Notes under the pieces: generated by a model | The model's input: the letters and a program-made list of their open reading frames with translations, nothing else | What the model was told of the DNA's origin: nothing | Databases searched by the model: none | DNA from: a virus | DNA: 64,000 nt | Virus record (IMG/VR): IMGVR_UViG_3300034159_000059 | Reading direction: 5' to 3' (one strand) | Position numbers and translations under genes: made by a program | In this document: piece after piece, positions 5,346 through 64,000 of the stretch | Layout of the letters: each line of letters opens with the position of its first letter | Position numbering within the stretch: the first letter of the stretch is position 1

Positions 5346-5379
5346 GTGGGCAAGCTCGTCTCAGTCACCGTCATAAGCC

Positions 5380-5424
5380 GAGCGGCGGAGGGTAGTAAGA
5401 CCACCTTCCGCCGCTCTCGTTTTA
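5380..5424 (+). terminator. rho-independent terminator-like hairpin (gagcggcgga...tccgccgctc) + TCGTTTTA
   Basis: 10-bp stem followed by a T-run, ~25 nt upstream of the DnaB-like gene RBS. Confidence 0.45.
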
Positions 5425-5446
5425 GCCTTCTACCTGGAGGGATCCC

Positions 5447-52368: not shown

Positions 52369-55300
52369 TTACCCTACGTAGCCTCTGTTCCCCCGCGTCA
52401 GCGCGGCCAGGTACGCTTCGACCTTCTCCAGCTTCTTGGCGCGCACGTCGTAGGAGGCGGCCACAGCCCGTTTCGCCTCGCCTCCCATCCTAGCCAGGCG
52501 CATCACAGGGTTGTCCATAAGGCCGGTCAGATTCCCAGCCTTTACCGTTGCCGGATGAACTGAGAGGGAGTGGAAGCCGAGCGTGCCGGACACCACGTTG
52601 ACGCTGGAGCCGCTGACGGAGATAGCAAGGTCGTGCGATCCCAAGAGCTCCCTCTTTGAAGCGACTGGGCGCCTGGTGAAGCTCTCGATGAACTCATCGA
52701 CGTCGAGATGCTCGGAACGCACCTTACCGTACAAGTATGCAATGAAGTTCAACGCCGTCTCAATGGAGAGTAGAGACCTCTTCTGATCGATGGTCTTGAT
52801 ACGTGCTTGAAGGGCTTTGACGTCTTCGTCGAAGGAAGTATCCAGTCCGTCCTCTGGAAGACTTGTCGGGACCTGCCTCAGTTCTGCTGGAACGCTTTGC
52901 GTGATGATTTGGTCGACGACAGACGCGCAGCCGAAGAATTTCTGGTAGATGCGCGGGCCGATGTTCTCGTTGTCGTAAGAAGTAGAAAGCCAAGAGGGAC
53001 GGACCACGTACTCGACAGGAACGCGAGGGTCTGTACTCTGGCTGTAAGGGACTGCGACTTCCTCGTGAATCATGATCGAGGTGAAATAGCGGACTCCATT
53101 CACCTCAGTCACGTTGTACGGTGGGAGAGCCTGAACAAGCTTCACCTTCCCACCCTTGAGACCCGTAGAGCCTACGGTGATGATACCTGGAGGACTTGGC
53201 ACCTTGATGGTGTCTCCCGCAGCTCCAAAAGGAGAGGCAGAGTCCACAAGGAAACTGGTGTTGGAAGAAGACTTGGTAGTCCCTTCTCCGAGAGACTGCA
53301 CAGCAACGCTCTTCTGTGTTGTCGTCTCTACCCCCTTGGAGATGGTCTTCACGTCGTAGGTGGCAGCGTTGCTGGACTGCTTGCGGATATCGAGAGCAGT
53401 GAGCGCCGCATCATTCGGCCCTTGGGGTGTGCAGTCTCTCAAGAAACTGAGCAGCTTCTCATTCGGAACCGCATCCTTGTAGCTGAGAGTCCAGTGAACC
53501 ACCTGCGTCTTGGTCTTGGTGTTCCCTGTTCGATCGAGAAGCTTCCCGATGAACTCGTCATCGATTCCAAGGTGAGAGCGGCAGTGGGACAGAGCCACGG
53601 TGGTATGTCCTCCGTCTTGGCCGACGGAGTGAGTGAGGGACTCGATCATCCCGAGGAACTGAGGAGGGGCTCCAAGCTCCCCCGCAGGGTTCTGACTGAG
53701 GCGAATGCGATCGAGGATCTCCTCCTCTGTGGCTGTGGGAAGGTTGACGTAGAACGGCTTCTGGATGACCGCAGAAGGGAACCCCACCACCAGATAAGGC
53801 ATGAAGCGGCCAGCGACGTTCAGAGTCCTAGCGCCCATGCGGTACTTGAAGAAGTGATGCATCCCGACGCGCTGGCTCCAGGTGAGCTTGGCCTGCTTGA
53901 GCTTCTTCTGAGCATCATTAGAAGTTCCCCGAAGCCAGCCAGAGCTAAAGGAATCAGGCAGCCATTCCTCTCGGGCCACGATGCCCGTGTGGAGCTCGTG
54001 ATCCATGAGGATGCGCCACTTGTTTGCCATATGCTTTGCGACCTCCAGGGAGAGGTCACGCAGGTCTGGCTCCAAGAGGTGGACGGAGAGAAGGGCCGAA
54101 TCGTTTGGAGCTGCTCCCGGGTTCGGGGTGGCGACCTGGGAGTGGACGGAGATCTCGACGCGCGTCACTTCGTTGATGAAGGTACGGTCGTATGTGAGTT
54201 GCGAGTACTGTTCCGGGAAGATCACGTTGCAGACCGGCGGAGCTCCCATGAAGCAGTCCGGACGAAAGATCTGAGATCGAAGCCGGTCGTCTCTCTTCCC
54301 AACGTAGTTGGCTCCCTCGGAGGTGGTGACCGTCTTGTCCCCCGCCGCGTCGAGAGAGGAGATGAGGTCTGCGGTGAGGCTTGCCGCAGTGGAACGCTGC
54401 ACGTCTCTTTCCTTCTCCGATAGAGTCATGAAGCTTTGAAGCAACTTCGCGATCACCGAGTTGAGGGTGCTCGCTCTGACTCCGACATCGCTCGGCAGTC
54501 CTTTGACCTTGGGCAAGACAGCCAGCACCTTCGTCTTCAAATCTGCCGAGACCTTCGCCAGAGTCGGCTTCTCCAAACTGGGGGAGTCTAGAAGGACAGC
54601 GGCGTCTTGGAGTGTCCCTCTGATGCCAGGGAAGTAGCGGCTTGCGGACAAGCTACCCTTGCTGGCAGGAACCTTGACGGAGACTTTGGTGGCAGATGGG
54701 TCATACTTCGCCACCGGGTTCGGAGCTACTGAGTAGTAGATGAACTGACAGAGCAACTTGAACATGTCGCGAAGAGTGATCTGCCCTCCGGCGACAGAGA
54801 TCTGGTTGTTCAGCCACTCGAAGAAGACACGGTGGTTGAGTAGCTTCTGAGCCGTCGAGTCGTTGTCCTCGGCCACTACCTGCGCCAGAAGATGGTTCCT
54901 CAACTCCGCGATGGTGAAGAAATCGTTCACCCCGAGCTGGTACCCTCGCAGCCCTCCCATGACTTCCATCAGACGAAGGATGCCTCCTGCCAGACCACCA
55001 ACGTCCGTTGAGCCTGGCATCTGAGGCTTCGAAAGGATCCAAGACCTGAGCTTCTCGGCGGGGCTCTGGGTAGGGACAGATGAAAAGAGGCCAGTGTTGG
55101 AAGCGTACACGCCTCCCTTCGCAACGAAAGCGTTCCCGCCCGGCCCGTAGTCCATCACCGTCGCTTGGCACAGATCCCAGTAGCTCGAATGATCCAAGCA
55201 CTGAAGAATGACGGCTCGACTCATCGGAGTCTTCTGAAAGCTGAAGCCGACGACCTCTCCACAGAAGAGAAGCTTGTAAACCTGGTCAGAGAGGCCGCTG

Positions 55301-55569
55301 TCTTGCGCGACTCCTTTATCGTTCGTGACGCGCAGCCCTGAAAGGCTCTGTCTCGCAATCTCTCCCTTGGTGGAGTTGACCAGAGGCTCCTCAAGAAAGA
55401 AGAGATGCACCATGGTGCGAGGTTTCAGCTCCATCACTTCGTCCAACGGAACGACTTGGATGGCCGCGGACACAGGAGCGAACATCGTCGCCTGAACCTG
55501 CGCCGAGATGACCGGGACTTCCTGACCTTCGAGAAAGAGACGGAGGTGGAGAGGCTTCGCAAGCGACAT
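52369..55569 (-). CDS. large virion-associated protein (1066 aa), function unknown
   Basis: Long biased ORF. Confidence 0.5.
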   Translation of the reverse strand: MSLAKPLHLRLFLEGQEVPVISAQVQATMFAPVSAAIQVVPLDEVMELKPRTMVHLFFLEEPLVNSTKGEIARQSLSGLRVTNDKGVAQDSGLSDQVYKLLFCGEVVGFSFQKTPMSRAVILQCLDHSSYWDLCQATVMDYGPGGNAFVAKGGVYASNTGLFSSVPTQSPAEKLRSWILSKPQMPGSTDVGGLAGGILRLMEVMGGLRGYQLGVNDFFTIAELRNHLLAQVVAEDNDSTAQKLLNHRVFFEWLNNQISVAGGQITLRDMFKLLCQFIYYSVAPNPVAKYDPSATKVSVKVPASKGSLSASRYFPGIRGTLQDAAVLLDSPSLEKPTLAKVSADLKTKVLAVLPKVKGLPSDVGVRASTLNSVIAKLLQSFMTLSEKERDVQRSTAASLTADLISSLDAAGDKTVTTSEGANYVGKRDDRLRSQIFRPDCFMGAPPVCNVIFPEQYSQLTYDRTFINEVTRVEISVHSQVATPNPGAAPNDSALLSVHLLEPDLRDLSLEVAKHMANKWRILMDHELHTGIVAREEWLPDSFSSGWLRGTSNDAQKKLKQAKLTWSQRVGMHHFFKYRMGARTLNVAGRFMPYLVVGFPSAVIQKPFYVNLPTATEEEILDRIRLSQNPAGELGAPPQFLGMIESLTHSVGQDGGHTTVALSHCRSHLGIDDEFIGKLLDRTGNTKTKTQVVHWTLSYKDAVPNEKLLSFLRDCTPQGPNDAALTALDIRKQSSNAATYDVKTISKGVETTTQKSVAVQSLGEGTTKSSSNTSFLVDSASPFGAAGDTIKVPSPPGIITVGSTGLKGGKVKLVQALPPYNVTEVNGVRYFTSIMIHEEVAVPYSQSTDPRVPVEYVVRPSWLSTSYDNENIGPRIYQKFFGCASVVDQIITQSVPAELRQVPTSLPEDGLDTSFDEDVKALQARIKTIDQKRSLLSIETALNFIAYLYGKVRSEHLDVDEFIESFTRRPVASKRELLGSHDLAISVSGSSVNVVSGTLGFHSLSVHPATVKAGNLTGLMDNPVMRLARMGGEAKRAVAASYDVRAKKLEKVEAYLAALTRGNRGYVG

Positions 55570-55579
55570 GGATCTCTCG

Positions 55580-57121
55580 CTACTGAGACTGGGATTGCTT
55601 CAGGGATTCCAAGCGCCGCTGCATCGCGTCGGTGGAAATGCTGGAAGCGAAGGCCTGGAATTCGGCGGTAGGAACTCCCATCACCTGCGGCTTTGAGGTC
55701 CCTGGTTGAGTGAGAGTTTGATTCGTACCGGAGGAGGTTCCGTCGGCCGAGGCTGAGATCGCGCGGTCGATGGCAGCCGCCGTTTCAGGAGATGTAGACT
55801 GCACGACGCTGTCGGCCAACGCTGCGTTGCTGAGAAGAGCTGTGGAACCTGCCACCACAGGAGTACCAGCGGCCAGCGCCGTGTTGGCCATGACACCACT
55901 TCCTGCCACAACTCCTCTTGCGGCCCCCAGCACCTGGAGACCGATACCTGTCTGGGAAAGCAAGCCGACCGTCTTCGTGATCTCCGAAGATGGAACGACT
56001 AGACCGTACCTAGCCCACTCCACCCGAGCTGTCTCGAACATCTGATCCTGACTGTCGAAGGAGGACTTGGTGTTGAAGGCCGCAGTGAATGTGTCCCCGA
56101 GCTCAAGAGATGAGGAACCGTACTGTTGAGAGATTCCAACGAACTCGTCGTCGTTCTGACCGAAAGTCGAGAATCGAATAGGGCCTTCCACACCCACGAC
56201 ATCTGCCGGAACGAACTTCGGGTCATCGAAGGCCAGCGCTCCGGCAAAGCCTACAGGGACGCGGATAGGGTCCCCGAGCCAAGCATTCGCAGAGAGAATG
56301 GAGTTCTGGGTGATCTCTGTGATCTTGGACCACGTATCTTGGATCGTCCTCACCGCATCATTCGCAATGCTCTCGAAGAGCGACGGGGACTGACCGACCG
56401 GAGTTGAGAAGGTGGGCACAAGTTGCGGTCTGTAAATGCTGGTATCCGTCTCCCCGAGATCCGTGAATGCGTTCGGGTTGGCGTTTGGATCCCCGAGACG
56501 AGAAAGGTTGGTGTAGTCGGTCACGAACATCTGGAACGAGAAAGGGACGTGGTTCCGTTCCTGTGAGTTCTTCACCGACGAGGTGGACATGATGTAGCCC
56601 GACACCATGGTGTCGTCGTAGGTGAGGTAGACGCGAGCATCGTTCTCGACACATTTCGAACCACGCAGGTAGTTCTCGTAGTTGTAGAGCCATTCGGCTT
56701 CCCAGTTGAAGTCGAAGGTGTTGATGAGGATCCCCTGAACCCCGAGAATACGCGGACGTTCTCCGAAGAAGAAGATGAACGCTTCGCCAAAGGTCTCTAC
56801 GATCTGCTGCTTCTCGACGCGCTCTTCTTGGACTTGCTGGATGAGGAAGTTCGAGTAGCTCTTCGACTTCATCATGTTGCCGTCCATCTCCCCGGTACGC
56901 GAACCGGCGTTGACGAGCGGCAGAGCGAGTCCGTTGGAGAGTAGGACCCGCAGGGTAGCGTAGGTATTGTCCTTTAGAACGATGCCGCGCGTAGGACGAC
57001 GAACGTCCCGCTGAAGCGCGCTGCGGACTTCTGCCGGATCCGAGCTCTTGATCGTGTTCGAGAGGTTCGAGAAGAGCTGGGATTGCCGATCCGGGATGAT
57101 GGCGACGGTGACGGAGCTCAT
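55580..57121 (-). CDS. virion-associated protein (513 aa)
   Basis: Long ORF. C-terminal Ala/Gly/Ser/Thr-rich tail. Confidence 0.45.
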   Translation of the reverse strand: MSSVTVAIIPDRQSQLFSNLSNTIKSSDPAEVRSALQRDVRRPTRGIVLKDNTYATLRVLLSNGLALPLVNAGSRTGEMDGNMMKSKSYSNFLIQQVQEERVEKQQIVETFGEAFIFFFGERPRILGVQGILINTFDFNWEAEWLYNYENYLRGSKCVENDARVYLTYDDTMVSGYIMSTSSVKNSQERNHVPFSFQMFVTDYTNLSRLGDPNANPNAFTDLGETDTSIYRPQLVPTFSTPVGQSPSLFESIANDAVRTIQDTWSKITEITQNSILSANAWLGDPIRVPVGFAGALAFDDPKFVPADVVGVEGPIRFSTFGQNDDEFVGISQQYGSSSLELGDTFTAAFNTKSSFDSQDQMFETARVEWARYGLVVPSSEITKTVGLLSQTGIGLQVLGAARGVVAGSGVMANTALAAGTPVVAGSTALLSNAALADSVVQSTSPETAAAIDRAISASADGTSSGTNQTLTQPGTSKPQVMGVPTAEFQAFASSISTDAMQRRLESLKQSQSQ

Positions 57122-57327
57122 CGCTCGACCCCCAGGCGAATGAGAAGATCTCGAACATCCCGAGAGACTCGGTGATTTGACGGAGTATCTCCGTTCATCA
57201 CCTCAGCCGAGTAGAGACGCATCTCCACTACCAGGACATCTTCGATGGTGGGGTTGTCTACGAGGTAGATAGTGTAAGGCCGCCCACTCAGAACAGCCTT
57301 GGTGCTGATGTCTGTGCGAAGAGGCAT
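57118..57327 (-). CDS. small hypothetical protein
   Basis: 69 aa, ATGA-coupled. Confidence 0.4.
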   Translation of the reverse strand: MPLRTDISTKAVLSGRPYTIYLVDNPTIEDVLVVEMRLYSAEVMNGDTPSNHRVSRDVRDLLIRLGVER

Positions 57328-57330
57328 GGT

Positions 57331-60300
57331 CTAGTACCCCGGAGTCGCATTCCCAGAAAGTTGCTGTTGAAGCTCGGTCGCCTTGGACCCCTTCTCTCCG
57401 ACCTTACCCAGCTTGTCGGCGTTGGCGGCGATGACCGCTTCTGCGATGACCTTGAGAGTGACTACCATCTGATTCTGGGCGTCTTTCTGCTGTTGCTGCT
57501 CTGCGCCTCCAGCAACAATCTGTGCGGAGCGATGGCGCCCTGTGACACCTTCCAGCTCCTTCATGGCGAGGTCAGTGAGCTGCCCACGGTCTCCCTTGAG
57601 GACTTTCTTGACCTCAGCGACGTCGATATGGAGCTCTTCCGCGAGCTTCGACGCAGAGACCATAGAGCCTCGACCATGGTGCTTCCAAATCTCTCGGGCG
57701 CCTTTCATACCCTCGTAGGCAGCTCGGACCGCAGGAGACGCAGTCTGCACCATCTGCTCCCGATCTCCTTCAGGTGCCTTGATGATTAGCTCGGCAGCAG
57801 ACTTCGCCGACTCCTGCATATCGCTCCAAGCCTTCTGTCGATCCTCTACCGACCCCTGAAGAAGAGCCTTCGACCCTCGATCGTAGGCTTCCTTCACTGC
57901 CTTCATCTTGTCGGCAAAAGCGGAGTTGCCGGACCGAGCCGCAGACTCGGCTGCCTCTCCTGCGGCAGTCGCCTGATCTGCGATGGCTCCAGCAAAAGCG
58001 ACGGTGTCCTTGGTCTTCGAAGCTTCCTTGAAGGCGTCGAGTACTCCCTTGGCCTTCGACGGATCCTTCTTCATCACTTCCAAAGCCTGTGCCGCTGCTT
58101 CCAACTCAGAAGACGTCAGTCGCTTCTTGGTCAGTTCCTCTACCCGAGCGACGTCGCCTTTCATGATGGCATCGTGGATGGCGTTCTTGTCCGTCGTGGC
58201 GCTGTTCCAAGCTTCGAGCACGTCTCGAACTGCTGGACGAGACTTCAGCGTCTGAGCAATGTTGGCGCCGAAATGCTTCACAAGCTGAGAGTCCGCTTCT
58301 CGGTAGTTGAGAGCGGCAGCGGCCACGTCGATGTACGACCCTTGCCCCCAAGCAGCGGAGGCGCTGATGCGAGCGCTTCTGTCGATCTCAGTGGCTTGGG
58401 CGGCGAAGACTGCGGCAGTGACGCCACCCATCCCTGTTCGCTTCTCTAGAGCTTCGAGACCCCGGCGTAGACCCCGTTCCTCTCCAGAGAAGGGGTTGAA
58501 TGCGTCCATAGACTTGGACGCGACCCGTTGCTGAATCATCTCAAGCTTCTTGGCTTCCGTCGCGTTCCGGAACTCATCTTTCCCCATGAGATCGCGATGA
58601 GCCTCCGCTGCGTAGCGGGCAGCGGCTTTCTCATCGTCGCTCATTCCCTTGAACATGGCGCCGGAGTCGATGTCGCCCAGCCTCTTGTTGTAGGACGCAA
58701 CATCCGAATCCTTGTTGATGTCGAGACCCTTGGCTCCGACCCAATTCGAGTACGTGCTGAAAGCGTTTTCCGGGGTTCGTCCTGTACCGGTGGAGCCGAT
58801 GCTACTGACCCATGCCCCAAGGCTGGATCCACGAACGTCGCGGACAAGAGAGCCAAAGTCCTGCCCCATCGTAGTAGGACCGGCTGCCATCGCCGAGGCG
58901 CCCATAGGGCCTGTCAGGCGAATGAGAGCGCCTAGAGTGCTACCCGGTCCGCTTCCCGAAGAGCGGCGGGCTCCAGTGTTTCCACCGAAGAGATCTTCCA
59001 GCGCCTTCTTGTCCTTGGTGGCGAACGCCTGAATGAACTTCTTCTGAGATTCTTCTGAAGCAGCGACCACGTAGTTGCCGACCATGTCATCGATGAAGCT
59101 GTCGACGCCTTTGGTGATCGTTCCCCACAACTCTGCGCCGAACTTCTGGAAGGGCTGAGAGATCTTGTTCCCAATGGCCGTCCCGACCCTCTTCATCACA
59201 GCCCGAGGATCCGCATTTTCACGCATAGACGACTGACGAGACCGCATGTTTGCGACGAGGTTCTGCGCCGCATTCGATCCACCTGTCCCGGACTGGTAGA
59301 GGTTTCGTGCGAGCTCGGCTTCCTGCTCCGACGCTCCATACCGTTGCATGAGTAGCTCAGGGGCCTGGGAGCCGTACTGACCCACAAGCTGGTCCATCAG
59401 CCCGTAGGTTGCCTGAACCCCTCCAGCCGCTGTGAACTCTCCTGCGAGACGAGACTGACTGGCCTCAAAGGCGATGGCGTTTTTTCCCTGAGACATCGTC
59501 TTCATACCACGCTGCCGAAGCTCGCCCGAAGAGATGAGTCCTTCTTGCCATCTCTTCATGACGTCTTGATTCAGACGAGCCTTCCCACCTTCATCAACCT
59601 CCATGGCCCCGGCGATCATGTACCGCCCCACGGAAGATCCTGCGAGACGGACGGACAAGTTCGCCATCCGCATCGAGGCGTCCTGAACCGCTTCGCCTCC
59701 CGTCTTGCCGGTGAGGTCTTCGAGGAGGCCCTGTTTGATGACGCCGCCCTGTTGGGCCAGACCGATGGTGGAGGCGATGTTCCCCGCTGCTCTCGCCATC
59801 GTGGAGCGCCCAGTGCCTGTCGCAGTGCCAAGGTCAGCCATGCCCTGCTGAAGCTGCATGAACTGCTGCTGAGTCATTCCCGTCGTGCCCGTAACTACTT
59901 GAGCCTGGACGGCGTTTCGAAGCTGGTCCGTGCGTCCGAAGAACCCGACACGCGCCGAGTGTTGGAAGAAAGCCCCCGCTTCTTCCATGGTGGAGCCGAT
60001 GACTTTGGAGATGTCTCGAATGGTGGTGATGGCTTCCTTGAAGCGTCGGTTGAACTCGAAGGCGTCTCGGACTCCCTGCATCACGCCAGACGCTTTGAGC
60101 GTCGGCATCATCTTGGTGAGCTCCTGCATCGACGTCATGAGCTCGGGCATCATCGCGAGTTGCCGTACCTGCTGACCGATGGCAGAAGCGTCGTCTCGGG
60201 TGAAACCGAAACCTGTACGGGATTGTGGGTTGATATGGTTGTACTGACCGAGGGCCGTATTCACCATCGACTGCTGCTGAGCGCCGCCCACGATGTTCGA

Positions 60301-60774
60301 GACCCCGTGCTGAAGCGCCATGGCAGGAAGCATGGAGAGACCGGCCACGCCTGCCGCTCCCGCCATCCCAAGCCCTCCCGCACGCGCCGCCCCGAACGCG
60401 GCGAAGGGGTTGACGAGCGGAGCGATACCCGCCCCAGCCTTCGTCATCGAGAAGAGCTCCATCCCCGTGAGGCCCATGGTGGGGATGGCAGAAGCTGCCC
60501 CCATCGCGGCACCGCCGATGCGGTTCCCCGCGCCGTAGCCGTAGAAGGGGTTCGCTCCGTAGCTGAAGCCGCCACCAGCTCCTTGAGGAAGAGGAGTGCC
60601 GCCGCCGGCTCCCAGACCCGCACCCCCGCCAAAAGACATCGGGGCACCGATCTGCGAGGCCATGGCGTACTGGCCCATGAAGAACTGGTTCTGTTGGGCT
60701 ATCTGTTCTGCGATTTCCTGGGAGGTCATGTGGCTCGCAGAGGACGAGGATAGAGAGCCTCCGTAGGGTAGCAT
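57331..60774 (-). CDS. tape-measure-like / internal virion protein (1147 aa)
   Basis: Gly-rich N-terminus followed by a long Ala/Lys/Glu/Gln-rich helical region. First gene after the divergent region. Confidence 0.45.
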   Translation of the reverse strand: MLPYGGSLSSSSASHMTSQEIAEQIAQQNQFFMGQYAMASQIGAPMSFGGGAGLGAGGGTPLPQGAGGGFSYGANPFYGYGAGNRIGGAAMGAASAIPTMGLTGMELFSMTKAGAGIAPLVNPFAAFGAARAGGLGMAGAAGVAGLSMLPAMALQHGVSNIVGGAQQQSMVNTALGQYNHINPQSRTGFGFTRDDASAIGQQVRQLAMMPELMTSMQELTKMMPTLKASGVMQGVRDAFEFNRRFKEAITTIRDISKVIGSTMEEAGAFFQHSARVGFFGRTDQLRNAVQAQVVTGTTGMTQQQFMQLQQGMADLGTATGTGRSTMARAAGNIASTIGLAQQGGVIKQGLLEDLTGKTGGEAVQDASMRMANLSVRLAGSSVGRYMIAGAMEVDEGGKARLNQDVMKRWQEGLISSGELRQRGMKTMSQGKNAIAFEASQSRLAGEFTAAGGVQATYGLMDQLVGQYGSQAPELLMQRYGASEQEAELARNLYQSGTGGSNAAQNLVANMRSRQSSMRENADPRAVMKRVGTAIGNKISQPFQKFGAELWGTITKGVDSFIDDMVGNYVVAASEESQKKFIQAFATKDKKALEDLFGGNTGARRSSGSGPGSTLGALIRLTGPMGASAMAAGPTTMGQDFGSLVRDVRGSSLGAWVSSIGSTGTGRTPENAFSTYSNWVGAKGLDINKDSDVASYNKRLGDIDSGAMFKGMSDDEKAAARYAAEAHRDLMGKDEFRNATEAKKLEMIQQRVASKSMDAFNPFSGEERGLRRGLEALEKRTGMGGVTAAVFAAQATEIDRSARISASAAWGQGSYIDVAAAALNYREADSQLVKHFGANIAQTLKSRPAVRDVLEAWNSATTDKNAIHDAIMKGDVARVEELTKKRLTSSELEAAAQALEVMKKDPSKAKGVLDAFKEASKTKDTVAFAGAIADQATAAGEAAESAARSGNSAFADKMKAVKEAYDRGSKALLQGSVEDRQKAWSDMQESAKSAAELIIKAPEGDREQMVQTASPAVRAAYEGMKGAREIWKHHGRGSMVSASKLAEELHIDVAEVKKVLKGDRGQLTDLAMKELEGVTGRHRSAQIVAGGAEQQQQKDAQNQMVVTLKVIAEAVIAANADKLGKVGEKGSKATELQQQLSGNATPGY

Positions 60775-60840
60775 CTGAAGTCGTCCTACCCAAGAGAAAG
60801 CTCACACGCTCTAAGGGGATAAGAAGACTAGGAGGTTCTG

Positions 60841-61317
60841 ATGCTTGGTCTTCTTGCGACGGTCCGTCTCCTACTCAAAGCCACTCTTCCAAGACGAATG
60901 GGGAGAGTGGTAGCAGGATGGGCCGATACCGTAGATGTTTTGGTGAAGAAGGAGAGACTCGGCCACATCGAGAGGGAACAGTACCTCGACATCAACCGAG
61001 ACAGGAGGAGATGGGAAGGCGAGCGATACGGGGCGGTTGAAGTCTTTCTAGAGTTCCACATCGCGCCAGAAGATCTCCCCCACACTGAAGCTTTTCACTG
61101 GGCGATCGGAGACTTCGTCTTCAAAACGAGCGAATGGGTCGATCTTTGGAACTGGCTCGACGTGAAGACATGGAATGCGACCAACGAAGAGAAGATGAAC
61201 ATCGGCGTTGACGGCCACTGGCTCCTCGAAGTCGGTCGTCGAAGGTGGGCTGACGAGAGTGTTAGGAACGAGGCGCGGAAGAACGCGAATCTCTCGGCAG
61301 AGAAAATGGTTCAGTGA
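60841..61317 (+). CDS. hypothetical protein
   Basis: TAGGAGG RBS 6 nt upstream of ATG 60841. 158 aa. Confidence 0.5.
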   Translation: MLGLLATVRLLLKATLPRRMGRVVAGWADTVDVLVKKERLGHIEREQYLDINRDRRRWEGERYGAVEVFLEFHIAPEDLPHTEAFHWAIGDFVFKTSEWVDLWNWLDVKTWNATNEEKMNIGVDGHWLLEVGRRRWADESVRNEARKNANLSAEKMVQ

Positions 61318-61618
61318 GGCAGGCATAAGCTGGCTACCGCTCTGGGTTTCTGTGCCCAGAGACGGTAGCCAGGCCCTTCTCCCTAACCTTAGCTCAAAGT
61401 CAAGAAGACGCGCCTGTTGTCACCTGCTCGTGGCGGTAGTAGAAGGATCGCACGCCCAGCTCCTGCAAGGCTGTGCGTACCGAAAGAAGGGGACGCCCCC
61501 GTGCTACTGCTCTATCCCGCTCAGGCGGGCTCGTTCCTCTTCGTCCTCAACCTCTTCTCGTAGTCCAACAACGGCCCAAGGCCCTTTGCCTTGGGCTTTT
61601 TCGTGTTCGGAGCCAACC
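61318..61618 (+). promoter_or_regulatory. structured ~300-nt leader upstream of nrdJ
   Basis: Long imperfect hairpin 61329-61374, small GC hairpins at ~61491-61527, and a terminator-like hairpin 61573-61601 (ggcccaagg-ccctttg-ccttgggc + TTTTT) ending 17 nt before the nrdJ ATG. Confidence 0.35.
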
Positions 61619-63682
61619 ATGGATGTGCAAGCAGGGCTTCAGTCACCCGAAGCGGTTGGGCAAGTCCGCGACCCAGAGGAGCTCAGCAGCAAGACTCCCG
61701 CATGGGGCCCCATCGGAGAGCAAGTCTTCAAGAGGTCCTACGCTCGCGAGCTCGATGACTCTGGTCGCAAGGAGACTTGGCACGAGACGGTTGTCCGCAC
61801 CGTGGACGGCAACCTGAATCTCGTCGATGCGCAGTACATCGAAGAGGGCGAACGCGAGAAGCTCATCGCCCTGCTACATCCCTTCGACGCACTTCCTGCG
61901 GGAAGACATCTGGCGGCCTCTGGTGTAAAGGGCCGCCAGTTCCTCTTCAACTGCCACGGATCCGGCTGGGACGCGGCAGAGCCCTGGGCCCATTTCACCT
62001 TCCTCTTCGACGAGCTCATGCAAGGAGGAGGAGTCGGGGCAAACTACTCCGACCGCTACCTGGACGCCCTTCCAGAGTTCCGACAGAACGTCGATCTCCA
62101 CATCATGTGTGAGGAATCGCATCCCGACATCGAGCGCTTCCGTAAGTACCTCACATCGAAAACGCAGTTCGACGTCGCCGACTACTACTTCATTCCAGAC
62201 TCTCGGGAAGGCTGGATCGCCTCGATCGAGTACGTCCTCAAAGCCGCATGGGGACACACTTCGAAGCGCCTCATCGTCATCGACGTCTCTCGGCTGCGCA
62301 AGAAGGGCTCGAAGCTCAAGACGGGTGGAGGGGTTTCGCCAGGCCCCGAACCCCTCGTCCTCATGCTGTCCAAGCTCGCCAAGCTGATGAAGGACATCGC
62401 AGGCAAGAGGCTCACCTGGCACATGGCGATGGAGATCGACCACCACATCGCAGCCTGTGTGGTCGCAGGAGGAAAGCGTCGCAGCAGCCGGATGTCGGTG
62501 AAGAGTTGGAAGGACACAGGCATCTTCGACTTCATCGACTACAAGAAGCTCGATGGAGATAGCTGGACCACCAACCTCTCGGTCGAGATCGACGACGACT
62601 TCATACACGCTTTCGAGGCCGATGATCCGAAGGCGCATCGTGTCCTGGAGGCCATCGTCCAGGGAAAGAGAACCAACGGAGAGCCTGGTATCTGGAACCG
62701 GAGCCGTTCCATGCAAGGCGAGCCGGAGCCGGAGGAGATGTACTGCCCGAATCCTTGCGGCGAGATCGGGCTCTATATGTGGGAGAACTGCAACCTCGGC
62801 CACATCAACCTTCAGCACTTCGCTCATCGTTCACCGAGGAAGGCCATCGAGGCATTCAGGCTCATGACCAGGTGGCTCATTCGTGCCACCTATGGAGACA
62901 TCCCGCAGCCTCGCCAGCGCGCCGTCACTGACAAGAACCGTCGCATCGGCGTCGGCTTCTTCGGCTTCCATGGATGGCTGGCCCTCCAAGGAATCAAGTA
63001 CAGCGAGTGCTGGAAGGATGAGTACACCCAGACCATGCTTCGCAGGTTCCGCGAAGCAGTCGACGAGGAGGCGACCAAGTACTCTCAGCAGCTCGGGATC
63101 CCGCGTCCGGCGAAGACCACCACTGTGGCGCCTACCGGAACGCTGGCTCTCCTCCCCGGAGTCTCGTCAGGACTCCAGCCTCTCTTCGCTCGGCACTTCA
63201 AGAGGCTGGTGCGGTACTCCGACACGGATCCGGAGCTCGAAGGCATCCGGGCAAAAGGCTACAAGGTCTACCAGGATCCCGACGCGCTCAACACCTGGAT
63301 CGTCGAGTACTGGTGCGAGGATCCTCTCGTCACCAAGGTGCGTGCTTCGGGCTACAACCCCGAAGACGTCGTGGAAGGCCAGGACGAGATCGACTTCACC
63401 GACTACCTAGAAGTTCAGGCGATGGTGCAAGACATCTACGCCGACAATGCCATCAGCTTCACCATCAACATCCCAGAGACCAAGATGCCGAACGAGAGCG
63501 AGATGGTCACTTCTCTCTCCAAAGTACTCTACCGGCTCAAGGGCACCACGGTCTTCCCGGACAAGTCTCGCAAGAATGCGCCGTACCAGCGCATCAGCAA
63601 GGAAGAGTTCGACAGCTACACTGGTCCGAGAGAGCTGAGTCAGGCAGAAGACGAGTGCAAGCACGGCTGCCCGATCACGTGA
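61619..63682 (+). CDS. nrdJ: ribonucleotide reductase, class II (adenosylcobalamin-dependent, NrdJ-type)
   Basis: Active-site NPCGEI motif (Asn-x-Cys-Gly-Glu). ~687 aa, monomeric class II size. Start placed at MDVQ (61619). The listed 137-aa upstream extension is Arg/Ser-rich non-protein-like sequence. Confidence 0.8.
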   Translation: MDVQAGLQSPEAVGQVRDPEELSSKTPAWGPIGEQVFKRSYARELDDSGRKETWHETVVRTVDGNLNLVDAQYIEEGEREKLIALLHPFDALPAGRHLAASGVKGRQFLFNCHGSGWDAAEPWAHFTFLFDELMQGGGVGANYSDRYLDALPEFRQNVDLHIMCEESHPDIERFRKYLTSKTQFDVADYYFIPDSREGWIASIEYVLKAAWGHTSKRLIVIDVSRLRKKGSKLKTGGGVSPGPEPLVLMLSKLAKLMKDIAGKRLTWHMAMEIDHHIAACVVAGGKRRSSRMSVKSWKDTGIFDFIDYKKLDGDSWTTNLSVEIDDDFIHAFEADDPKAHRVLEAIVQGKRTNGEPGIWNRSRSMQGEPEPEEMYCPNPCGEIGLYMWENCNLGHINLQHFAHRSPRKAIEAFRLMTRWLIRATYGDIPQPRQRAVTDKNRRIGVGFFGFHGWLALQGIKYSECWKDEYTQTMLRRFREAVDEEATKYSQQLGIPRPAKTTTVAPTGTLALLPGVSSGLQPLFARHFKRLVRYSDTDPELEGIRAKGYKVYQDPDALNTWIVEYWCEDPLVTKVRASGYNPEDVVEGQDEIDFTDYLEVQAMVQDIYADNAISFTINIPETKMPNESEMVTSLSKVLYRLKGTTVFPDKSRKNAPYQRISKEEFDSYTGPRELSQAEDECKHGCPIT

Positions 63683-63717
63683 AGCGCAGCAACAACTAGC
63701 TAACAAATGAAGACATA

Positions 63718-63753
63718 AGAAGAAGGACCGGGAGTGTTTACTCGGTCCTTCTT
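63718..63753 (+). terminator. 12-bp perfect hairpin (gaagaaggaccg...cggtccttcttc) after nrdJ
   Basis: Stem-loop 35 nt after the nrdJ stop, ending 2 nt before the next ATG. Weak T tract. Confidence 0.35.
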
Positions 63754-63755
63754 CT

Positions 63756-64000
63756 TATGAACACCTTCTTACCGTATCCAAGCTTTGAAGAGTCGGCTCG
63801 GGCGCTTGATGACAAACGGCTACCGAACCAAGTGAACGAAGCGCTCGTCATCTACAAAGTGCTGAGAGGAGAGACGAACGCCTGGAAACATCACCCAGCA
63901 GTTCTGATGTGGAAAGGGTACGTAGAGGCTTTACTCAACTATCGCGCGGCCATGATGCTGGAGTGCGGCCATCGCGGTATCTACAGAAACTGGACCCTGC
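63756..64000 (+). CDS. pyrimidine-dimer DNA glycosylase-like protein (N-terminal part; runs off window)
   Basis: LRGETNAWKHHPAVLMWKGY resembles the conserved LRGET..Y.HHPQL segment of the bacterial pyrimidine-dimer glycosylase-like family. Truncated at the window end. Confidence 0.4.

Follow-up and report, generated by a model that had tools for sequence, protein, structure and literature searches.

A candidate ribosome-mediated attenuator in the leader of a class II ribonucleotide reductase gene from a clade of jumbo phages

The nrdJ gene of a giant (jumbo) phage of ~209 kb appears to have a sigma70-type promoter of its own, followed by a leader of ~170 nt that may act as a ribosome-mediated transcription attenuator resembling those of pyrE and pyrBI in Escherichia coli; the probability of this reading is put at roughly one in two. 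The analysis covered the window, a stretch of 64,000 nucleotides of the phage genome, as well as related loci, and all of the features described below for the gap before nrdJ lie on the plus strand. The product of nrdJ is a class II ribonucleotide reductase as judged by Pfam and PHROGs. Identical synteny and the same leader were found at ~25 loci, all of which belong to one clade of uncultivated jumbo phages, and there the leader elements before nrdJ keep a constant order, while their stems show compensatory changes. A gene encoding a 158-aa protein always adjoins the leader on its upstream side (stop codon at 61315 to 61317), whereas on the downstream side nrdJ is preceded by the Shine-Dalgarno (SD) sequence GGAG at 61609 to 61612 and begins with ATG at 61619 to 61621, the distance from GGAG to ATG being 5 to 8 nt in all relatives. 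A 308-nt stretch here has a fold stability z score of -3.3, and none of 100 shuffles folded equally well; conservation across the relatives is the stronger evidence for the elements within it.

The leader is confined to this clade and to this gene among the sequences searched. A covariance model of the leader core gave only one match within the window, at 61447 to 61518 (E = 2.5e-10), and its matches beyond the window were solely upstream of nrdJ in clade members. The model found no match among those nrdJ loci of phages and bacteria, at 41 to 49% identity, that were sampled. No other copies of the promoter, of the 5' hairpin P1, or of the leader were found in the 64-kb window, and a pattern scan of viral-contig DNA with a conserved 18-mer returned only the contig that was already known. 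RNAalifold gave no consensus fold when whole leaders were aligned with plain MAFFT. An inverted-repeat search of the whole window was uninformative.

The predicted promoter is located inside the gap, at 61417 to 61445, and consists of a -35 element (TTGTCA, 61417 to 61422), a 17-bp spacer, and a -10 element (TAGAAG, 61440 to 61445), with transcription probably starting at A61452. Sigma70-type promoters were recognized as -35 and -10 hexamers that are 16 to 18 bp apart and are conserved while the spacer varies, and judged by sequence this arrangement is present here: TTGnCA and TAnAA are invariant in an alignment of nine loci in which the spacer sequence is variable. The pattern is present in most of the other clade members too, and it occurs once in the 64 kb, compared with 0.14 expected occurrences. 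An "AC" located 6 to 7 nt past the -10 element is also invariant. Position 6 of the -10 element is G or C instead of the usual final T, which is why a scan for consensus promoters missed it. Since the promoter lies within the gap, the leader measured from the predicted start is ~167 nt. The preliminary description of this DNA had treated the gap as one leader of ~300 nt, which the conserved promoter divides. That reading had overlooked both the internal promoter and the 20-codon upstream open reading frame (uORF) described below.

Several conserved elements lie upstream of the promoter. The long hairpin that had been placed at 61329 to 61374 was found at 61330 to 61372 (CTGGCTACCGCTCTGGG...CCCAGAGACGGTAGCCAG, -35.1 kcal/mol), with arms that covary in the relatives; because it is upstream of the promoter, it would be absent from a transcript made from that promoter. 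It forms part of a recurring module made up of CATAAG and a strong hairpin, with or without a following TTAGC, and comparable modules, located by their (C/G)ATAAG motif, begin at 5372, 60818, and 63714, beside gene starts. In the gap, the TTAGC box (61389 to 61393) sits between the long hairpin and the -35 element and is retained in nearly all relatives; the box also trails the hairpin at 5380 to 5416, as TTTAGCC. The motif AGAAAA-N18-CATAAG at 61301 to 61329, which overlaps the end of the 158-aa gene, is promoter-like and may have that function. An "AAAA ... TAnAAG" motif is retained in all relatives even though the C termini of the protein differ, and the pattern AGAAAR-N18-ATAAG is also found at 60795 to 60823, before the 158-aa gene.

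Downstream of the predicted start, the leader carries the features that would be expected of an attenuator with a leader peptide, namely, a short open reading frame with its own SD sequence and start codon. The putative SD sequence, AAGGGGA at 61487 to 61493, contains a GGG(G)A core that varies little or not at all across an alignment of 20 leaders and is always located 5 to 9 nt upstream of GUG or AUG, giving the conserved motif "GGGGAC N5-8 RUG." In the window, the predicted uORF runs from a GUG start codon for 20 codons (MLLLYPAQAGSFLFVLNLFS) to a UAG stop codon at 61561 to 61563 and so spans 61501 to 61563. Of 26 leaders, 25 (23 of 24 plus L254 and L255; the exception is L014) have a uORF of 13 to 20 codons in the same location; the family uORFs start with either GUG or AUG, and UAG, UAA, and UGA are all in use as stop codons. 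Length differences within the uORF stay in frame, as with the 6-nt difference in L255, whereas the noncoding distance from the -35 element to the start codon is distributed almost evenly over the three classes modulo 3 (7, 8, and 8). Across ~14 diverged lineages, a first in-frame stop at codons 13 to 20 was seen in only 8 to 18% of shuffles per sequence. The region is poor in stop codons in every frame (0, 3, and 5 over 23 sequences), and the openness of the uORF frame by itself is therefore weak evidence. Taken from these sequence features, the uORF is probably translated. A 48-aa open reading frame with a TTG start (61417 to 61563), which was listed mechanically and is a called gene in L004, was rejected because its start codon coincides with the -35 box and the part of the frame that precedes the GUG shows no conservation.

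The peptide itself is not conserved. Comparison with the closest relative (L254) showed four nonsynonymous and no synonymous codon changes, and neither a run of regulatory codons nor a shared enriched amino acid was found across the uORF peptides of the family, several of which end in proline or close to it. The short GC hairpins reported earlier at ~61491 to 61527 are present, one at ~61489 to 61499 (GGGGACGCCCC) and the other, P3, at 61516 to 61529 (-8.7 kcal/mol), where codons 6 to 10 of the uORF form the stem-loop CCCGC UCAG GCGGG (CCCGCUCAGGCGGG). A P3-like hairpin is found at codons 4 to 13 in ~13 of 23 members and is missing from some others; its arms covary, examples being CCCAC/GUGGG in L253, CCCCA/UGGGG in L008, and GCCGAC/GUCGGC in L009. 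P3 could possibly act as a pause or synchronizing hairpin for RNA polymerase. The second half of the uORF (61530 to 61560) is C/U rich and G poor in the window and C/A rich in other subgroups, so that what the subgroups share is only a composition rich in C and poor in G.

The leader ends in an intrinsic terminator at 61573 to 61601, found by a terminator scan and predicted to stop transcription in the window. Its stem, GGCCCAAGGC/GCCUUGGGCU, has 10 bp (61573 to 61582 paired with 61588 to 61597) rather than the 8 to 9 bp reported before, including 7 G-C pairs, and encloses the loop CCUUU; the run of five T residues (61597 to 61601) ends 17 nt upstream of the nrdJ ATG, as had been noted from the sequence. 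With the terminator directly before nrdJ, there is no room for a separate promoter between the two. L254 carries a compensatory change in the stem, from CCCAAGG/CCUUGGG to CCCGAGG/CCUCGGG, and all 23 members that were scored have a hairpin at this place, with -17.5 kcal/mol for cognate halves versus -8.4 kcal/mol for swapped halves. A U tract is likewise present in the subgroup of the window and in L010, L013, and L252. About half of the family (L015, L094-L102, L100, and others) has the hairpin without a proper U tract; the intrinsic-terminator step is thus not universal, and these members would need Rho or some other mechanism.

The spacing between the uORF and the terminator is the feature on which the proposed mechanism turns. 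The uORF stop codon is 9 nt from the terminator stem in the window and between -3 and 15 nt from it across 23 members, distances that would be within reach of occlusion by a terminating ribosome. Termination at the tR2 terminator, examined in E. coli, is almost fully repressed when a stop codon lies a few base pairs upstream; moving the stop codon from 28 bp to 5 bp away lowered termination from ~90% to <10%, full termination required a stop codon more than ~27 to 30 nt away, and the repression was lost when translation was uncoupled (PMC4824070). [quoted passage not shown] It is because of these published experiments, in which ribosomes stopping this near suppress an intrinsic terminator, that ribosome-mediated attenuation is considered the best reading of the nrdJ leader. 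In a few members, the stop codon is 13 to 15 nt from the hairpin, where occlusion would be only partial.

Under this proposal, transcription would start near A61452, and P1 would be the first structure to fold in the RNA. The RNA polymerase would then transcribe the SD sequence, the GUG, and the uORF with P3 and its C-rich, G-poor tail, reaching a strong terminator 9 nt beyond the stop codon, with the ribosome-binding site of nrdJ directly after it. If no ribosome followed close behind the polymerase, the terminator hairpin would fold and transcription would stop before nrdJ. A ribosome translating the uORF in step with the polymerase would, on arriving at the stop codon, cover the base of the terminator's 5' arm, so that the hairpin would be blocked and nrdJ would be transcribed. 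Translation of the uORF would in this way suppress the terminator, and the translating ribosome is most likely the "sensor"; the role of the uORF would be to be translated, the peptide itself being immaterial.

In its general plan, this leader is like rph-pyrE and pyrBI of E. coli, in which a reading frame ends before or runs into an intrinsic terminator ahead of a gene of nucleotide metabolism. In those operons, a closely following ribosome prevents the terminator hairpin from forming, no antiterminator is needed, and the distance to the stop codon is critical (PMC2784333; PMC4824070); for nrdJ, the same behavior is proposed by analogy. The nrdJ leader differs from pyrE and pyrBI in having a dedicated phage uORF of 13 to 20 codons, in preceding a class II ribonucleotide reductase gene, in adding a 5' hairpin with an invariant loop, and in the absence of the U tract from half of the family. 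Unlike the UTP-sensitive pyrE and pyrBI leaders, the family leaders also showed no conserved U-rich or other nucleoside triphosphate-sensitive pause tracts, and the tail of the uORF is C rich. The order of promoter, short leader frame with an SD sequence, possible pause hairpin within the frame, and terminator before the gene is shared with the trp, his, and leu attenuators. However, the nrdJ leader has neither the 2:3 antiterminator of those systems nor their regulatory codons, and the logic of those attenuators is the opposite, since completed translation should favor read-through in the nrdJ leader.

A simpler explanation is that the architecture is constitutive and the uORF and terminator do not form a switch. 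A leaky terminator would then hold nrdJ transcription at a fixed low level or insulate the gene from upstream transcription, and the 5' hairpin would stabilize the mRNA. Partial terminators between genes are common in phage genomes, and the searches for an input signal, for regulatory codons, and for an alternative fold all came back empty, as would be expected if nothing were being sensed; the weak or absent U tracts in half of the family point the same way. Constitutive expression nevertheless leaves unexplained why the SD sequence, the start codon, the in-frame stop, and the distance from stop to hairpin have been kept in lineages too diverged to align, and it offers no reason for the invariance of the P1 loop. 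This explanation is considered unlikely.

The composition of the uORF raises the prospect of Rho-dependent attenuation gated by translation, as in tnaC or mgtL, in which the C-rich tail would be a Rho loading site that is exposed when the uORF is untranslated, the hairpin would be a pause site, and the U tract in the subgroup of the window would be a later addition. The family uORFs contain 40.5% C and 17.4% G, a bias found in all subgroups irrespective of the peptide, and an excess of C over G is the accepted mark of Rho utilization (rut) sites (PMC13650167). The many members that have a hairpin lacking a U tract would also be accommodated. At only ~30 to 45 nt, however, the C-rich tract is short as rut sites go; the canonical intrinsic terminator of the window needs no Rho, and this route would depend on a host that has Rho. 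The resemblance to tnaC and mgtL extends to a short uORF, a C-rich and G-poor stretch, and premature termination that would be decided by translation of the uORF, but the window has a Rho-independent terminator, the C-rich tract belongs to the uORF instead of following it, and a conserved arrest peptide is lacking. Control by Rho is accordingly regarded as improbable for this leader.

Ribosome-mediated attenuation leaves the invariance of one element, the P1 loop, unexplained. P1 is the 5'-terminal hairpin of the predicted transcript (61452 to 61478), with the loop CUGCAA at 61463 to 61468, and 22 of 24 leaders carry exactly this loop. When the alignment was anchored on the loop alone, 77% of the cells were paired, compared with 58% in shuffles; all five pairs change on both sides, none of 500 shuffles reached the covariation score, and cognate arms gave -11.8 kcal/mol, compared with -6.0 kcal/mol when the arms were swapped. 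A structure-free register with a 7-nt loop failed (48% paired, not above shuffles), whereas the hexaloop register passed. As far as sequence can indicate, covarying arms around an invariant loop are the signature of sequence-specific recognition. The UGC-A within the loop resembles a T-box specifier codon followed by a purine, and this candidate was rejected; there was no T-box match in Rfam, and no bulge was visible by eye.

These properties of P1 are the basis for a third alternative, in which a phage or host protein or RNA binds CUGCAA and either renders the polymerase resistant to terminators, as with lambda N at nut or HK022 put, or blocks or opens the ribosome-binding site of the uORF. 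P1 would be the first RNA made, and in the window it ends 8 nt upstream of the SD sequence of the uORF. A YCCU sequence atop P1 can pair with the GGGG of the SD sequence in 94% of the cells, though without covariation. Like the nut sites (boxA/boxB) and put, P1 is a small hairpin with an invariant loop that sits close behind a phage promoter, with a terminator farther downstream, but the likeness is one of resemblance only: the loop sequence is unrelated, and neither a boxA-like conserved single strand nor an N-like partner was found. Nut and put sites are usually located behind several early promoters, whereas P1 is present in a single copy in the 64 of ~209 kb searched and in the flanks examined from all relatives, and no other P1-type hairpin of note was found in the window. 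Nut and put sites also contain no uORF, and factor binding at P1 would leave the uORF of the nrdJ leader unexplained unless it were combined with ribosome-mediated attenuation. No candidate for the binding protein emerged; the sequence of the neighboring 158-aa protein matched nothing in Pfam, PHROGs, or the PDB, and its AlphaFold model (pLDDT of 68, with ~85 for the C-terminal half) has no fold match, so that it offers no lead to a trans-acting factor. Control by such a factor is thought quite unlikely. In a combined form, the CUGCAA hexaloop would dock a phage or host factor that controls initiation at the uORF and thereby switches the terminator, for example, by exposing or hiding the GGGG of the SD sequence, which can pair with YCCU; this proposal is equally speculative, and we would not expect it to prove correct.

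The preliminary description had regarded a terminator just before a start codon as the expression platform of an attenuator or riboswitch. As the platform of an attenuator, the terminator agrees with the findings presented above, but a metabolite riboswitch binding adenosylcobalamin, a nucleotide, or another ligand is close to refuted. A conserved leader that is structured and ends in a terminator before the gene for a cofactor-dependent enzyme does invite that interpretation, and a leader before a B12-related gene with a terminator as a possible platform is all that this region shares with the cobalamin riboswitches (RF00174 and variants). Neither the whole window nor any of 19 related loci contained a match to an Rfam family at its gathering score, and a permissive scan of 61200 to 61750 up to E = 10 listed no cobalamin model. 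The matches to Hrs13 (24.7 bits, compared with a cutoff of 52), VrrA, and microRNA families were below threshold and were dismissed, that to Hrs13 as terminator-driven noise and the others as driven by the terminator or by a plain hairpin. B12 riboswitches found close to ribonucleotide reductase genes repress the enzymes that do not need B12, and none is known to repress nrdJ.

A conserved B12 box and the multihelix core or multistem junction of an aptamer were both absent from the leaders. Beyond the promoter, the invariant RNA features are only the SD sequence, the start codon, and the hexaloop, and a 6-nt loop is too little for an aptamer. The string "gcuacug" at 61503 to 61509, pointed out earlier when no canonical B12 box was recognized, is not a degenerate B12 box but variable coding sequence from codons 1 to 3 of the uORF (GUG CUA CUG), and L001 has GCGCAAG instead. 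No conserved antiterminator or other competing fold was found in 11 members, in which forbidding the terminator costs 7.6 to 21 kcal/mol and the alternative structures share no pairing. A kissing interaction in which the GGGAC motif would pair with the loop of the terminator looks favorable in L010, L013, and L252, where a change also seems to be compensated, but it does not extend to the family as a whole, and an SD sequence is the better explanation of the motif. The preliminary description had itself named the lack of a covariance-model match and of a mutually exclusive antiterminator as grounds for abandoning a riboswitch, and both are lacking here. It had also suggested an NrdR-like site, and a search of the whole window for tandem 16-bp boxes (consensus acaCwAtATaTwGtgt) found no box within three mismatches.

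Ribonucleotide reductase is among the commonest auxiliary genes of phages, and to our knowledge little is known of how phages control it. The nrdJ leaders form a compact, conserved family of ~170 nt that is not in Rfam and comes from an uncultivated jumbo-phage clade. They also hold a caution for genome scans, as a leader that looked like a riboswitch, with structure, a terminator, and a G-rich motif, turned out upon comparison of relatives to carry an SD sequence, a start codon, and a uORF. The invariant P1 loop provides a well-defined handle toward a new RNA-binding regulator. If P1 does dock a factor, the leader would be a leader-RNA family absent from Rfam in which a hairpin, a factor, and a leader peptide form a three-part regulator that sets when ribonucleotide reductase is made in the course of infection by a jumbo phage. 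If the leader is a ribosome-mediated attenuator, it would be a rare phage case of leader-peptide attenuation, through which a giant phage would couple its supply of deoxynucleoside triphosphates to the state of translation in the infected cell, as E. coli does with its pyrimidine genes.

The window is part of a ~209-kb contig with a G+C content of 57%, in which genes lie on the plus strand up to ~24 kb, on the minus strand up to 60774, and then on the plus strand again. Here, an open reading frame (ORF) of 158 aa (60841-61317) directly precedes the gap in front of nrdJ, which encodes a class II, B12-dependent ribonucleotide reductase and whose ATG at 61619 follows a Shine-Dalgarno (SD) sequence, GGAG, by 6 nt. 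The next gene (63757-64000, plus strand) encodes a pyrimidine-dimer DNA glycosylase similar to T4 DenV (Pfam Pyr_excise; E = 1.4e-20). The phage lineage is very poorly characterized. The long ORFs of the window had no match in Pfam or PHROG, including three of 1066, 513, and 1147 aa on the minus strand (52369-60774). The 158-aa protein, which begins with a hydrophobic helix and is a conserved neighbor of the leader, had no match in Pfam, PHROG, PDB sequences, or PDB folds (AlphaFold model, pLDDT 68).

Relatives of NrdJ at 53 to 73% identity are encoded on many contigs of 100 to 210 kb, which points to a jumbo-phage clade. All of the ~25 clade loci with nrdJ that we retrieved share a gene order consisting of a ~1100-aa protein (minus strand), a small gene of 140 to 183 aa (plus strand), a gap of ~290 to 310 nt, and nrdJ. 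Downstream of nrdJ, several relatives carry a hemerythrin-domain gene (L004, 4735-5151; L005, 4877-5302; L006, 4853-5266), loci L005 and L008 include a DNA ligase, and weak or faint HAD_PNKP-like matches were found in L009, L253, and the locus found with protein P0008. The DenV-like gene of the window, set against the hemerythrin and ligase genes of the relatives, indicates that the nrdJ neighborhood is a variable cassette of DNA metabolism genes. Several NrdJ relatives (P0012, P0013, P0024, P0083, P0092, P0105, P0107, P0112, and P0113) are 976 to 1062 aa long compared with the usual ~690 aa; P0083, P0092, and P0107 contain intein or LAGLIDADG domains (PF14528 and PF14890), indicating that inteins invaded the nrdJ lineage of these phages. 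Locus L238, a MAG contig labeled Bacteriovoracaceae, looks like a binned phage; a long poly-G run with masked N's just 5' of its nrdJ relative (~1220-1270) is probably an assembly artifact.

The preliminary description had listed a long hairpin, short GC hairpins, and a terminator shortly before the nrdJ ATG, and all three are present in the gap, a stretch of 308 nt that folds better than shuffled sequences (z = -3.3). The long hairpin (61330-61372, plus strand; -35.1 kcal/mol) lies 5' of a predicted promoter, and the short GC hairpins are found at ~61489-61499 (GGGGACGCCCC) and at 61516-61529 (P3; CCCGCUCAGGCGGG; -8.7 kcal/mol). A terminator scan predicted a canonical intrinsic terminator on the plus strand, with a 10-bp stem and loop CCUUU (61573-61597) and a T5 tract to 61601, ending 17 nt short of 61619. 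Among relatives, structure is conserved in the long hairpin and the terminator, where substitutions compensate each other. In the middle of the gap, discrete blocks of sequence are conserved. These include the hexamers of a predicted sigma70-type promoter (plus strand; -35 TTGTCA, 61417-61422; -10 TAGAAG, 61440-61445). The pattern, TTGnCA, 17 (rarely 18) variable bp, and TAnAAn, was invariant in the first nine loci and present in most others, and it occurs once in 64 kb compared with 0.14 expected. A simple scan missed the promoter because its -10 element does not end in the usual T. An invariant AC 6 to 7 nt 3' of the -10 likely marks transcription start at A61452.

The motif GGGGAC N5-8 (G/A)UG was considered as an aptamer core and rejected, as it represents an SD and start codon opening a short upstream ORF (uORF) of 13 to 20 codons in 23 of the first 24 leaders and likewise in L254 and L255. 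In the window, the uORF runs from GUG 61501 to UAG 61563 on the plus strand (MLLLYPAQAGSFLFVLNLFS). Comparison among loci provides evidence for selection on the frame itself: starts alternate between GUG and AUG, the stop at the equivalent position may be UAG, UAA, or UGA, length changes are in frame (6 nt in L255; 3 to 4 codons in L001 and L004), noncoding distances between the -35 and the start codon fall into the three mod-3 classes in roughly equal numbers (7/8/8), and a first stop at codons 13 to 20 arises in only 8 to 18% of shuffles per sequence. An in-frame stop often lies just 5' of the start. Conservation does not extend to the peptide; L254, the closest relative, shows four nonsynonymous codon changes and no synonymous ones, and peptides of other subgroups are quite different and hydrophilic. 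Composition is kept across the family (C, 40.5%; G, 17.4%), as is P3 (codons 5 to 11) in ~13 of 23 members, with covarying arms.

A hairpin at the terminator position is universal in the family, and its cognate halves fold at -17.5 kcal/mol versus -8.4 kcal/mol when swapped. A proper U tract is found in the subgroup of the window and in L010, L013, L252, L159, and L253; it is absent from L015 and L094 to L102, and members of this type may depend on Rho loaded onto the C-rich uORF tail. Forbidding the terminator cost 7.6 to 21 kcal/mol and yielded no common alternative pairing among the folds; the leader is not an RNA-only switch. Rfam gave zero matches at gathering thresholds in the window and 19 relatives, and a permissive scan of the gap gave only subthreshold matches that owed their scores to the terminator or to a simple hairpin. 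The sequence gcuacug, which was noted earlier and resembles a B12 box, is not conserved among relatives and was rejected, and no NrdR box was found for the NrdR-like site also suggested. The leader did not pass as a cobalamin riboswitch, trp-type attenuator, or NrdR site, nor, on the evidence so far, as a lambda nut or HK022 put antitermination site. The preliminary reading holds up in part, with attenuation likely and a riboswitch very unlikely.

The closest working likeness is to the occlusion-type attenuators pyrE and pyrBI of E. coli. In E. coli, a translated ORF that ends a few bp upstream of terminator tR2 represses it almost fully; a stop at a 5-bp distance lowers termination from ~90% to <10%, termination is maximal only past ~27 to 30 nt, and uncoupled translation abolishes repression (PMC4824070). 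The pyrE attenuator depends similarly on where the rph frame stops (PMC2784333). The distance from uORF stop to terminator stem, 9 nt in the window and -3 to 15 nt across the family, fits such ribosome occlusion. By this likeness, we propose that read-through into nrdJ would require the uORF to be translated by a ribosome that follows the polymerase closely, and the anatomy suggests that P3 could act as a pause hairpin synchronizing the two. Confidence in the predicted promoter, uORF, and terminator is high; we give the occlusion mechanism a probability of about 0.5.

Hairpin P1 (61452-61478, plus strand) forms from the first transcribed bases and has an invariant CUGCAA loop. In an alignment anchored on the loop alone, pairing held in 77% of cells compared with 58% in shuffles and at most 44% in slid registers; all five pairs vary on both sides, with a covariation score matched by 0 of 500 shuffles, and cognate arms fold at -11.8 kcal/mol versus -6.0 kcal/mol for swapped arms. 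The YCCU at the top of P1 can pair with the GGGG of the uORF SD in 94% of cells, but this pairing shows no covariation; a factor acting via P1 may control initiation at the uORF. The loop is missing in two members: in L098, CGAGGU serves both as the 3' arm of the 5' hairpin and as the uORF SD, and the 5' hairpin of L100 is a different one (GGAGGUGCUUCACCUCC). Both loci may be natural experiments on P1 function.

The long hairpin belongs to a recurring module of (C/G)ATAAG, a strong hairpin, and sometimes TTAGC, with plus-strand copies adjoining gene starts at 5372-5430, 60795-60856, 61301-61393, and 63714-63759. The further (C/G)ATAAG motifs start at 5372, 60818, and 63714, the hairpins range from -13 to -35 kcal/mol, TTAGC follows two of them, and AGAAAR lies 18 bp ahead of ATAAG in the copies at 60795 and 61301. 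The 63714-63759 hairpin contains the ATG of the DenV-like gene in its 3' arm. The module may represent a second promoter, of a phage type and carrying a 5' hairpin, or else a terminator-promoter unit or a 3'-end element.

A covariance model built on the core of the leader had a single match in the window (61447-61518; E = 2.5e-10), and elsewhere matched only upstream of nrdJ within the clade, with no match in any of the phage and bacterial nrdJ loci sampled at 41 to 49% identity. Among the papers available for searching, none described a leader peptide or a riboswitch preceding a phage nrdJ. The nrdJ leader is an undescribed family in uncultivated jumbo phages, and its proposed mechanism is of a kind already known.
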